Below are positions 27,731-29,956 of a stretch of 64,000 nt of DNA, piece after piece. Positions within the stretch are counted from its first letter, which is position 1, and the number at the start of each line of letters is the position of its first letter. Source of the stretch: an uncultured Thermoplasmata archaeon (GTDB taxonomy: Archaea; Thermoplasmatota; Thermoplasmata; UBA10834). The stretch is from assembly GCA_963748615.1 (NCBI GenBank), contig CAVVJQ010000002.1, positions 323,240 to 387,239 of the forward strand. The letters run 5' to 3'. Position numbers and translations under genes: made by a program. The notes beneath the pieces were generated by a model. That model was not told the origin of the DNA, did no database searches, and worked only from the letters and a program-made list of their open reading frames with translations.

Positions 27731-29956
27731 TCAGGTCAGGTTCAGAACCTCCATCTCCCTCTCCATTATCGATATCTCCTGCTCCTTCATGGTCTCAGGG
27801 CTTATTGAGACTGCGAATATGCATTTCGATTCGGACACTTCATCGATTATGCTCCTCAGGAATCTGAGCACCGAATCGAAGTTGGTGTTGCTGATGAGAT
27901 ATTGTATACCATCGAGGACGACCATTCCGTTCCCCTCCTCCAGCATGAATTCCTGAATCTTGTGAATGATCATCTCCAGTGATGGCGGGACCGTATTCTC
28001 CATAGAACTGTCTTTATCCGTAAGCCAAAGTATCTGAGGGTCCTTCACGAAAGCATCTCTGATCCTCTTGGGGTTCATCCTCGTTATTATGAGCCCTCTG
28101 TATTTCTCGGTCATCATTCGTTCCATCAGGACATTGCTGTAGGTCGGTTTCTCCTCCTCTATCAGGTAACAATGGCCAGGCTGGATATTGACCTCCTTCA
28201 TGATCTCCTTTCTAGTCTCTTGCACTGGGGCGAGTGGCTTGAGTATGTCTGAGACGAGGGTCATGTCGATTTCCATCTTCATTATGGTGGAGAACGCGAC
28301 TATCTTGTTCAGCGTGCTCTCTATTTCCCGGACACTCTGAGTGACCTTCTCAGCGATGTACTTCACTACCTCATCGCTGAGTTTCAACTTCTTCTCGTGT
28401 GCCTTCACCCTGACGAGCTTGATCCTGGTGCTCTCATCTGGAGGGAGCAGGTCGACGGTCAATCCCTTCTGGATCCTGGCGTTCAACCTGTCGCTGAAGC
28501 CCGGGATCTCCGCGGGTAGTCTGTCGCTGGCAAGCACGACCTGCTTTCCAGAGTCGATGAGCGAATCGATGATATGTACCATCTCACCCTGAGCCTGTTC
28601 GCTGGCACCAAGGAACTGCATGTCGTCGACAAGCAGGAGTTCGGCATGGTTCAACTCATCCCTCAGATTCTTGATTGCATCTGAGCTCGTACTGTGCTCG
28701 ACCGCGTCGACCAGCTTGTCGGCCGGGGCATACAGGACGGCATATTCGCGGTTCTTGTTCAGTATGTGGTTTCCGATGGCCGCCAGGAGATGCGTCTTTC
28801 CCAGGCCAGTCGCACCGAATATCAGGAGTGGGTTGTATGCCTTGCCCGGATTCTCAGCTACGGCGACAGCGGTCGCTGCCGAGAACTTCGAACCAGGTCC
28901 TATCACGAAGTTGTCGAACCTCATTTCTGGCGGGAATGACTTGGTGAATCGCTGCTCCTTCTCACACTTGCTGCATTGTCCATCTTCCAATCCTCCACCA
29001 CAGATGGGGCACTTCTCGGTTTTCACAGCCTCTTCATCATCGGGCGTTGTCTGGTACTTGAGGATCAAATCGTAGACGTCCGACGCCTTCTCATCCTTCT
29101 TCTTCCGTTCCATCTCCTGCTTTATTGAATCCTCTTCCGCTTTCCTCTTCTGTATCTTGCGGCGGATCTTCTCTTGCAGGAACTCGATGTCAGATTCTAT
29201 CTCCGCAATCCGAGTGCGATCGTTCAGCTTCGTCCTTATCTCTGCAATCTCCGGTTCGAGTCCGAGTATCGGGAAATTGTTCAGGATAGTCTCGAACTGC
29301 CTGAGCTTGTTCGTGTCGCGCTCGAAGCCAGTCAGCTCCTTGGAGATTTCCTGGACACCTTGCTCCCTCGCGGTCTCAAGAGTCTCCACCTTGTACCCCT
29401 TTCTGCGCCACTGCTCTATCTTCTCGGCATACGGATCGATCTCCGCCTCTTCCTTGACCTTCGATTCGTCCCGCGCTTTAGGCGCTGGTTTGGGGGCGAC
29501 TCTTCCTGCGATGTATGCATCGGGGAAACGGCGCTCGAACTCCTCCTTCGGGACACGACTGTGTAGCTCGATGTTGGACCCCTTGTCCTGCGAGTCCTCT
29601 AGTATGAATCTAAGCGACTTCTCTCCGGTGTATATCCTCCGAAGCTCTCTGGGTTTCGATTTCTCGAACTCGTAGATCGCCATGACTGGTGTCCCGAGTT
29701 CAACGACGATGTAACCCGTGGAGTTCATGACGGGCTTCTCGAGCGTGACCTTCAGGTACCCGGTGAAACTGTACTGTTTCAGGTCCGACAGTATGCCCTT
29801 TAACGAATCGGGTCCTCCTTTGGCGGTCCTTACGATTATACCCTCAGGGATTCGGAGATCACTAACCATATCTGGGTCCACTCCGTGAATACTGTCGAAA
29901 CCTATTAACCCTTGTTGCCTGTGATAACCGCTGGTGTGGACCGATGCCACCATCAT
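27731..29956 (-). CDS. Chimeric protein: N-terminal DUF4388-like domain, coiled coil, zinc ribbon, DnaA-type AAA+ module, DUF835-like C-terminal domain
   Basis: Walker [24 protein letters not shown], Walker B [10 protein letters not shown], then [42 protein letters not shown], colinear with bacterial DnaA domain III. The ribbon is [18 protein letters not shown]. The C-terminus shows the DUF835 pattern ([31 protein letters not shown]). The start is set at ATG 29956 because the upstream 56 codons of the six-frame ORF overlap tRNA-Thr. Confidence 0.8.
   Translation of the reverse strand: [741 protein letters not shown]

Follow-up and report, generated by a model that had tools for sequence, protein, structure and literature searches.

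What is the ATPase core of a bacterial replication initiator doing in an archaeon? Textbooks treat DnaA as an initiator that is specific to bacteria and missing from archaea. The stretch of DNA studied here (the window: 64,000 nucleotides, positions 323,240 to 387,239 of contig CAVVJQ010000002.1 in assembly GCA_963748615.1, from an uncultured Thermoplasmata archaeon) encodes on its minus strand a protein in which a first-pass annotation, made from the sequence alone, had recognised a DnaA-type AAA+ module. Our work confirms this assignment: The protein contains domain III of DnaA without the domain IV that binds origins and the domain I that recruits the helicase, and this domain III is set into an archaeal signalling-type scaffold. 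Its domains follow one another in the order N-terminal alpha/beta domain, helical or coiled-coil module, four-cysteine zinc ribbon, DnaA domain III and DUF835. Members of the family are already present in public databases under automatic names; we regard them as a variant in which domain III of DnaA is built into an archaeal protein of the signalling type that is probably no initiator. A whole archaeal class carries a well-conserved and, judged by its residues, catalytically intact DnaA ATPase core that has no origin-related parts and is joined to a signalling domain. The gene and its parts are the following.

27731..29869, minus strand: whole DnaA-AAA+/DUF835 gene, 712 amino acids (aa) from the conserved start; alternative upstream ATG at 29956
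29519..29869, minus strand: N-terminal alpha/beta domain (aa 1-117)
29042..29431, minus strand: helical or coiled-coil module (aa 147-276)
28952..29023, minus strand: four-cysteine zinc ribbon (C287, C290, C299, C302)
28232..28939, minus strand: DnaA domain III (AAA+), which retains the helical insert specific to initiators as well as the lid
28175..28231, minus strand: conserved hinge helix, the connector of DnaA domains III and IV, near-invariant in relatives
27734..28174, minus strand: DUF835, a putative inactivated KaiC/FlaH-like alpha/beta domain

Residue numbers refer to the 712-aa frame; adding 29 gives the 741-aa numbering of the longer version that starts at 29956.

A DnaA domain III in an archaeal protein

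Profiles, structures and single residues all place the AAA+ module in the DnaA lineage, and not with Hda, DnaC or Orc1/Cdc6. First, the Pfam family Bac_DnaA (PF00308) matches aa 345-502 (741-aa numbering) with an E value of 5e-50, and the NCBIfam DnaA model TIGR00362 reaches 274.4 bits, as compared to its equivalog cutoff of 343.9, over profile positions 52-346 of 437. The Hda model TIGR03420 gives 96.7 bits (cutoff 194.8), IstB 34 or 54 bits and DnaC 25.9 bits, whereas the DnaA models of Pfam and NCBIfam score 170-274 bits; no Orc1/Cdc6-specific family was among the Pfam or NCBIfam matches of the protein. An assignment to Orc1/Cdc6 or another AAA+ clade, which had been considered as the result that would speak against a DnaA module, is thus not what the profiles favour. 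Second, a phmmer search of the sequences in the PDB retrieved B. subtilis DnaA (8btg) with 2.6e-59 and Hda with 2.5e-8. Third, in an AlphaFold2 (AF2) model of the 712-aa protein, built from an alignment of 51 sequences (mean predicted local distance difference test score, pLDDT, 80.4) and used instead of a single-sequence model that was discarded at pLDDT 41, the AAA+ part superimposes in Foldseek on domain III of B. subtilis DnaA (8bv3_A) with a template modelling (TM) score of 0.93 and a root mean square deviation of 1.8 A. The TM score is 0.92 for the T. maritima protein (2z4r_A) and 0.69-0.76 for Hda structures. The aligned identity with B. subtilis domain III is 41%.

The motifs quoted in the first-pass annotation are all in place, and they correspond residue for residue to Walker A, Walker B, box VII and sensor II of E. 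coli DnaA. A direct alignment gives the equivalences listed here, together with the conservation among 278 proteins of the AAA+-DUF835 family.

Walker A: K358/T359, E. coli DnaA K178/T179; Lys in 100% of the family
Walker B: D415/D416, E. coli DnaA D235/D236; DD in 99%
Sensor I: D449, E. coli DnaA D269; Asp in 97%
Box VII: R461, E. coli DnaA R281; Arg in 92%
Arginine finger: R465, E. coli DnaA R285; conserved in 94%
Sensor II: R514, E. coli DnaA R334; Arg in 98%

As in DnaA, a full-length helical insert separates strand 2 from Walker B; it aligns without gaps to E. coli residues 200-235, a region in which Hda carries a 9-residue deletion. The module even extends beyond the lid: The hinge helix (a conserved 14-residue stretch marks it) aligns with E. 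coli DnaA 359-376 and with the B. subtilis protein as far as chain residue 369, and DUF835 comes next. Domain IV itself is missing, since the TIGR00362 match ends at profile position 346 of 437, and at E<=1 Pfam finds neither DnaA_N nor Bac_DnaA_C in the protein. The protein thus resembles the bacterial DnaA proteins of known structure (8btg and 8bv3 of B. subtilis, 2z4r of T. maritima, 1l8q, 2hcb and 3r8f of A. aeolicus) in its domain III motifs, helical insert, lid and III-IV hinge helix, but it differs from them in lacking domain I, a domain II as such and the DnaA-box-binding domain IV, in having an N-terminal alpha/beta domain, a coiled coil, a zinc ribbon and a C-terminal DUF835, and in its archaeal host, which has MCM. 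Hda and HdaA are similar in that they, too, are AAA+ proteins of the DnaA lineage without domain IV, and Hda works by protein-protein contact and not by origin binding; however, the similarity is weaker, and the insert is shortened in Hda and of full DnaA length here. The archaeal genome is not known to have a DnaA or a beta clamp that could be the target of an Hda-like action.

The ATPase residues and the DNA-contacting surface have had different fates. E. coli V211, K243 and R245, which we take to be single-stranded DNA (ssDNA) contacts of the ATP-DnaA filament, correspond to E, S and Q in the protein of the window (E391 for V211; Q425 for R245). Ordinary DnaA proteins have I or V (99%), K (90%) and R (61%) at the three positions; in the AAA+-DUF835 family (n=278) the first is I in 26%, E in 14% and D in 11%, the second K in 36% and S in 34%, and the third R in 30%. 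Since the ATPase residues are constant and the ssDNA positions variable, we conclude that ATP binding, hydrolysis and the subunit interface are strongly constrained, and that the DNA-melting surface is not. With domains I and IV absent and the ssDNA-contact residues not conserved, the protein does not belong to the initiator DnaA proteins.

The accompanying domains and the range of the family

That domain IV is replaced by DUF835, as had been claimed, is borne out by the profiles: DUF835 (PF05763) matches aa 603-735 (741-aa numbering) with an E value of 1.7e-28 and 99.5 bits (cutoff 33.1) over positions 4-136 of the 136-position profile, in the place where Bac_DnaA_C was not found. DUF835 has been described as an inactivated KaiC (iKaiC) output domain of archaeal response regulators such as REC-DUF835 (Galperin et al. 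2018, PMC5847659). In the protein of the window the P-loop is absent, another stretch of 11 residues standing in place of GxxxxGK[ST], and a Walker-B-like strand, VVLDGIQYL, is present; the AF2 model shows a beta-alpha-beta pattern with block-mean pLDDT values mostly of 84-93. The likeness to KaiC-family ATPases, including FlaH/ArlH, lies in weak matches that cover the Walker-B strand and the helices after it (E 0.009-0.4: FlaH NF004723 0.0094, FlaH 4wia 0.058, KaiC 8db3 0.071), but DUF835 differs from these enzymes in having no P-loop. A close parallel in architecture is provided by the REC-DUF835 and REC-PAS-PAS-DUF835 regulators of Methanomicrobia and Thermoplasmata (PMC5847659), which also carry a terminal DUF835 in a multidomain signalling protein and occur in the same archaeal class. 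In contrast to these regulators, the switch upstream of DUF835 is a DnaA-type AAA+ module and not a phospho-receiver, and N-terminal domain, coiled coil and zinc ribbon come before it.

The zinc ribbon and the coiled coil that had been noted ahead of the AAA+ module are both confirmed, the latter as a helical or coiled-coil region. The helical module, defined by AF2 helices, conservation and our own hidden Markov model (HMM), is predicted to be helical over aa 146-273, with one helix of about 56 residues, and opens with a conserved W-x3-G-[YF]-x-V-x2-L-E motif. In related proteins (P0146, P0154, P0209) our HMM finds this helical unit of about 95 aa up to eight times. The four cysteines of the zinc ribbon, which was read from the sequence, are invariant among close relatives, and a CxxC...CxxC pair precedes the AAA+ module in 210 of the 267 full-length family members. 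The N-terminal domain is less easily classified. AF2 predicts strands and helices at aa 12-114 (block-mean pLDDT about 71-87), and the domain has no significant Pfam match, DUF4388 included, in the protein of the window and no convincing match among PDB sequences; AAA+ matches dominate the Foldseek output for the whole AF2 model, from which neither the N-terminal domain nor DUF835 can be assigned a fold. When 23 diverse family members were compared with Pfam, DUF2226 was found in four (best E value 3e-5) and DUF4388 (PF14332) in two (best 0.079). The label DUF4388-like, which had been given to this domain, is therefore weakly supported: Two of the relatives match, but the protein itself does not and DUF2226 fits better. 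By sequence, the domain seems to be related to the N-terminus of archaeal DUF2226 proteins, and its likeness to DUF4388/PATAN appears faint.

The limits of the gene required a decision between two start codons. The mechanical open reading frame runs uninterrupted from 27731 to 30124 on the minus strand. On the opposite strand, an intron-containing tRNA (30005..30105, plus; Rfam RF00005, 56.9 bits), which ARAGORN missed with default settings, overlaps the initial 56 codons of this frame. Because of this overlap the 5' extension is excluded, and the start at 29956 (741 aa), proposed initially, is sensible in that it avoids the tRNA. In an alignment with 12 relatives, however, conservation begins 29 codons further in, at MV(S/T)DLRIPEGI, which is the start of most homologues, and we therefore take the gene as 27731..29869 with 712 aa. 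Relatives of the same length are 63-94% identical, with strong conservation over the full length. When introns are allowed, ARAGORN reads the tRNA as Gly(gcc) with an odd geometry, and its identity is uncertain. Gene callers have extended the homologue P0002 (795 aa) through the same tRNA region.

The architecture is not a one-off, since hundreds of proteins from Thermoplasmata metagenome-assembled genomes (MAGs) carry DnaA-AAA+/DUF835. A word-indexed protein search returned more than 3000 matches, the best 120 of which all have the same architecture with 63-94% identity and are named "DnaA/Hda family protein [Thermoplasmata archaeon]" or "chromosomal replication initiator protein DnaA". An exhaustive search of representative proteins gave 20,729 proteins at E<=1e-3, and in the best 150 of them, mapped with our own domain HMMs, the full architecture persists down to about 30% identity. 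All named AAA+-DUF835 members are from Thermoplasmata or Methanomassiliicoccales; this range is taken from the source names of the members because a Walker-A pattern scan of genome contigs was swamped by bacterial DnaA and yielded one archaeal locus (L003). As to whether the architecture is common and already described, the first is the case; in the literature that we searched we found no DnaA-DUF835 architecture and no function for it, Makarova et al. 2017 (mBio 8:e01959-17), the likeliest place for the architecture to be listed, lying outside this search. If the mechanism proposed below holds, the automatic names call for correction: The label "chromosomal replication initiator protein DnaA", which hundreds of proteins from Thermoplasmata now bear, could mislead the prediction of origins and claims about replication in these lineages.

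The same best 150 proteins include other arrangements of these domains. Three proteins (P0192, P0202, P0239) have the N-terminal domain, the coiled coil and DUF835 and no AAA+ module; others combine the N-terminal domain and up to eight coiled-coil units with the AAA+ module, among them P0146, in which a double zinc ribbon substitutes for DUF835; and in P0209, from Thermoplasmata, DUF835 is followed by eight coiled-coil units. Judged from their sequences, the AAA+-less and reshuffled proteins look as if they had been assembled from one toolkit of domains, with the DnaA module as an optional part. Ordinary bacterial DnaA and tandem DnaA-type AAA+ proteins of about 650 aa are also among the 150.

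The tandem proteins, known as "DnaA/Hda family protein" in bacteria, share with the archaeal family a non-initiator domain III without domain IV and, in several cases, a helical module, but they have two AAA+ modules, no DUF835 and bacterial named members. Examples without domain IV are P0162, P0400, P0416, P0409 and P0148, and the two with organism names are from Gemmatimonadota. The archaeal coiled-coil HMM matches the region between the modules in several of them (e. g. P0152, P0156, P0397). P0409 has a W-x3-G-Y motif between the modules and a C-terminal DUF4388/PATAN domain, P0148 (1990 aa) an N-terminal MshEN domain, and the second module of the tandem proteins has a degenerate sensor I. 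Neighbour-joining trees of the AAA+ module (168 sequences, 235 columns, 50 bootstraps) have a support of 0-24% at the deep nodes, too low to infer monophyly, a donor phylum or the direction of transfer.

A conserved gene neighbourhood

Further evidence comes from the genes around the DnaA-like gene, which we compared in 13 archaeal loci; in the 10 of these that were compared by BLAST, the DnaA-like proteins are 34-71% identical to the protein of the window. Three neighbours matter here.

26000..27715, plus strand: convergent zinc-ribbon helical protein (Pfam DZR and Zn_ribbon_3), ending 15 bp from the stop codon of the DnaA-like gene
37375..38088, plus strand: KaiC-like single-domain ATPase, 237 aa (PF06745, 1.1e-33; NCBIfam KaiC families)
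38204..39214, plus strand: coiled-coil and double-zinc-ribbon protein, 336 aa (Pfam Zn_ribbon_3 and DZR), always after the KaiC-like gene

The association with the first of these is firm. In its product, an acidic linker of low complexity joins double zinc ribbons to a helical C-terminal domain of about 270 aa, and a homologue lies immediately downstream of the DnaA-like gene, in convergent orientation, in all 13 loci, with 24-60% identity (E 2e-19 to 8e-111) in the C-terminal domain. The association with the KaiC pair is suggestive. The KaiC-like ATPase has an intact Walker A motif (GPPGSMKTS) and is a candidate partner of DUF835, and orthologues with 69-92% identity are located within 10 kb of the DnaA-like gene in eight loci; homologues of the coiled-coil protein are present in L001, L003, L083, L096 and L097. 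The window and seven loci of several lineages, including MAGs named Methanomassiliicoccales, have a block in common, in which the genes for a giant CARDB/zinc-ribbon protein, the coiled-coil zinc-ribbon protein, the KaiC-like ATPase, GyrA, GyrB and ThiC are followed by the DnaA-like gene, its zinc-ribbon partner, adenosine kinase, OGG and Lhr. L096 and L097 have gyrase and thiC at another place, and their KaiC-like and coiled-coil genes stand directly beside the zinc-ribbon partner; in this lineage KaiC is 69% identical to that of the window and the DnaA-like proteins are about 35% identical. The pair is thus found within 10 kb of the DnaA-like gene in most lineages and in two different gene orders.

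In the window, gyrB-gyrA and the co-directional genes for the KaiC-like ATPase and the coiled-coil protein occupy 32718-39214 on the plus strand with gaps of 127 and 116 bp, an order that recurs in L001, L083, L098, L099 and L100; co-transcription of the KaiC pair with gyrase is possible. The GyrA protein of L095 (98-3622) contains an intein (Intein_splicing match, 1174 aa), and the DnaA-like protein of this MAG is named Methanomassiliicoccales.

Possible roles of the protein

What could a DnaA ATPase core do in such a setting? A nucleotide-dependent switch or scaffold, and not an initiator, had been suggested by the first-pass annotation, and this proposal, itself an inference, fits the absence of domains I and IV, the conservation of the ATPase and arginine-finger residues next to variable ssDNA positions, and the output role of DUF835. 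Our own reading, held tentatively and with somewhat less than an even chance of being right, is that the protein is an ATP-dependent, self-associating switch or scaffold with DUF835 as its output, that it acts in an archaeal KaiC-type signalling network, and that it is not an initiator. The gene neighbourhood, the reshuffled domains of relatives and the MCM gene of this genome also speak for such a role. The AAA+ module would bind ATP tightly and hydrolyse it slowly, like DnaA. In the ATP state, the subunits would associate head to tail via the arginine finger of box VII, and the long helix and the zinc ribbon may hold the subunits together or bind a partner. Such a nucleotide-dependent assembly would gather the C-terminal DUF835 domains, or release them, and the DUF835 output may then dock on a KaiC-family ATPase, with 37375-38088 as the candidate, and/or on the zinc-ribbon helical neighbour (26000-27715). 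Both of these proteins are possibly partners. The identity and intactness of the domains, the constancy of the ATPase and arginine-finger residues, the lack of domains I and IV, the range among named members and the gene neighbourhood are observed; we infer the ATP-dependent oligomerisation, the absence of an origin or DNA-melting activity, the docking of DUF835 on KaiC and the process that is controlled. If this mechanism is true, the family would be a natural experiment on the DnaA ATP switch and its arginine-finger oligomerisation apart from DNA, and it would open a way into the KaiC-type signalling of archaea, a network that is still poorly understood.

Several observations weigh against the switch and its link to KaiC. 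An hhalign comparison of DUF835 with the neighbouring KaiC family is not significant (1% probability), and the relation between the two comes from the literature (PMC5847659) and from weak matches. No KaiC pair is present within 8-10 kb in the lineage of L085, L087 and L089, and the KaiC linkage may reflect inherited synteny and not function, since gyrBA and thiC intervene in other loci. The DnaA-like gene and the gene of its zinc-ribbon partner do not form one operon because they are convergent. In addition, the DnaA-like gene lies among genes of DNA metabolism (gyrase, OGG, Lhr, and MCM at a distance of 15 kb). Finally, the ssDNA positions are variable and not uniformly lost: As about one quarter to one third of the members keep I, K or R, the family may still bind DNA.

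It is tempting to speculate that DnaA domain III is a portable ATP/ADP timer with a non-initiator radiation in Thermoplasmata and some bacteria, and that its archaeal copy entered together with the bacterial gyrase segment, beside which it still lies, and was rewired to a KaiC hub; such a hub might control cell-cycle or surface-filament processes. We regard this wider idea as unlikely. The lasting proximity to gyrase, itself a bacterial import, provides a testable hypothesis for the entry of bacterial chromosome-maintenance genes into archaea.

A role linked to replication or the chromosome is a first alternative, and in our view an improbable one. Here the protein would have kept a DnaA-like activity on DNA, forming a filament on ssDNA or controlling Orc1/MCM or gyrase, perhaps as a relic of a dnaA...gyrB gyrA segment acquired with gyrase. 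Such a role would agree with the intact AAA+ module including its initiator-specific insert, with the zinc ribbon ahead of it, and with the I, K or R that some family members have at the ssDNA positions; the window's own protein, however, has E, S and Q there, and domains I and IV are absent. The gene order can be argued both ways. The gyrB-gyrA genes are between one gene (thiC) and three features (tRNA, yip1 and thiC, as in the window) away, this proximity is seen in the window, L001, L003, L083, L095 and L098-L100, in several Thermoplasmata lineages and down to 37% identity, and OGG, Lhr and MCM are nearby. But two lineages (L085/L087/L089 and L096/L097) have no linkage to gyrase, and the DnaA-like gene is divergent from gyrB, unlike the co-directional order dnaA-dnaN-recF-gyrB of bacteria. 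MCM, which had been taken as the sign of archaeal replication in this genome, is confirmed at 12150..14354 (PF00493, 8.9e-93), and among the approximately 40 window proteins scanned with Pfam there is no Orc1/Cdc6 homologue. The search for origin-like features also speaks against this role: No 200-bp stretch falls below 42% G+C, the intergenic regions around the gene contain no repeat arrays, and the protein has no PIP-box-like motif. The trees, with their low support at the deep nodes, did not resolve a specific bacterial donor.

In a second alternative, which we consider improbable as well, the protein would regulate the motor of a type IV filament, either a pilus or a structure like the archaellum: A PATAN-like N-terminal domain and the FlaH-like DUF835 would both contact a FlaI/PilB-type ATPase, and the AAA+ module would act as the gate. 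FlaH is the best match of DUF835 both among solved structures and in NCBIfam, and a fragment of a relative has been annotated as FlaH by JGI; the N-terminal domain is faintly similar to DUF4388/PATAN, and PATAN domains are reported to bind the type IV pilus motor (bioRxiv 10.1101/2021.06.11.447907). Among the bacterial DnaA-type paralogues there are proteins with DUF4388 (P0409) or MshEN (P0148), and the window has two genes for FlaI-like ATPases and two T2SSF genes at 44249-49733, adjoining the giant CARDB/zinc-ribbon gene of the conserved block. However, the similarities are weak (E 0.01 to 0.1), the DnaA-like gene and the pilus genes lie 14 kb apart with a linkage known from the window alone, and the neighbouring KaiC fits generic KaiC models better than ArlH.

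An artefact or accident, i. e. bacterial contamination, a chimera made in assembly, a transferred dnaA that is decaying into a pseudogene, or a gene of a mobile element or defence island, might be suspected from the automatic name "chromosomal replication initiator protein DnaA" and from the frameshifted Lhr gene nearby, but it is effectively refuted by the same full-length architecture in hundreds of independent assemblies with contigs of up to 1.86 Mb and conserved archaeal neighbours, by the strong conservation over the full length, by the uniform composition of the window, and by a PADLOC search that returned nothing meaningful. The PADLOC matches were generic P-loop noise, and a reading as a defence system was rejected on these grounds.

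Some other genes of the window deserve mention. The large Lhr-type helicase at 19049-24432 (plus strand; DEAD, WH_Lhr, DEAD_assoc and AlkZ-like domains) is split into three frames (19049-20047, 20058-22577 and 22354-24432); since it is one gene of about 1790 aa in the relatives L001, L083 and L099, two frameshifts are implied, which reflect a pseudogene or assembly errors. A kinship of the DnaA-like protein with KaiC-like coiled-coil zinc-ribbon proteins elsewhere in the window, as proposed in the first-pass annotation, holds as a shared theme but not as homology of the N-terminal modules, none of which is detectable, and a search found no other window protein that shares the N-terminal, coiled-coil or DUF835 modules. 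The theme is exemplified by the 793-aa protein encoded at 51630-54011 (minus strand), with an N-terminal zinc ribbon, a helix-hairpin-helix, a coiled coil of about 350 aa and a C-terminal KaiC-like domain. Since its P-loop reads GKE and not GK[ST], this KaiC domain may be inactivated as well. A type IV filament locus on the minus strand (44249-50779) encodes two FlaI/ArlI-like secretion ATPases (413-432 bits, where the equivalog model demands 550), a pair of T2SSF membrane proteins and an unassigned protein of 347 aa, and it is adjoined by the gene of the 1104-aa CARDB/zinc-ribbon protein (40796-44110). Finally, an 839-aa fusion protein encoded at 54221-56740 (plus strand) combines an HdrA-like flavoprotein with ferredoxin domains and MvhD (FlpD).

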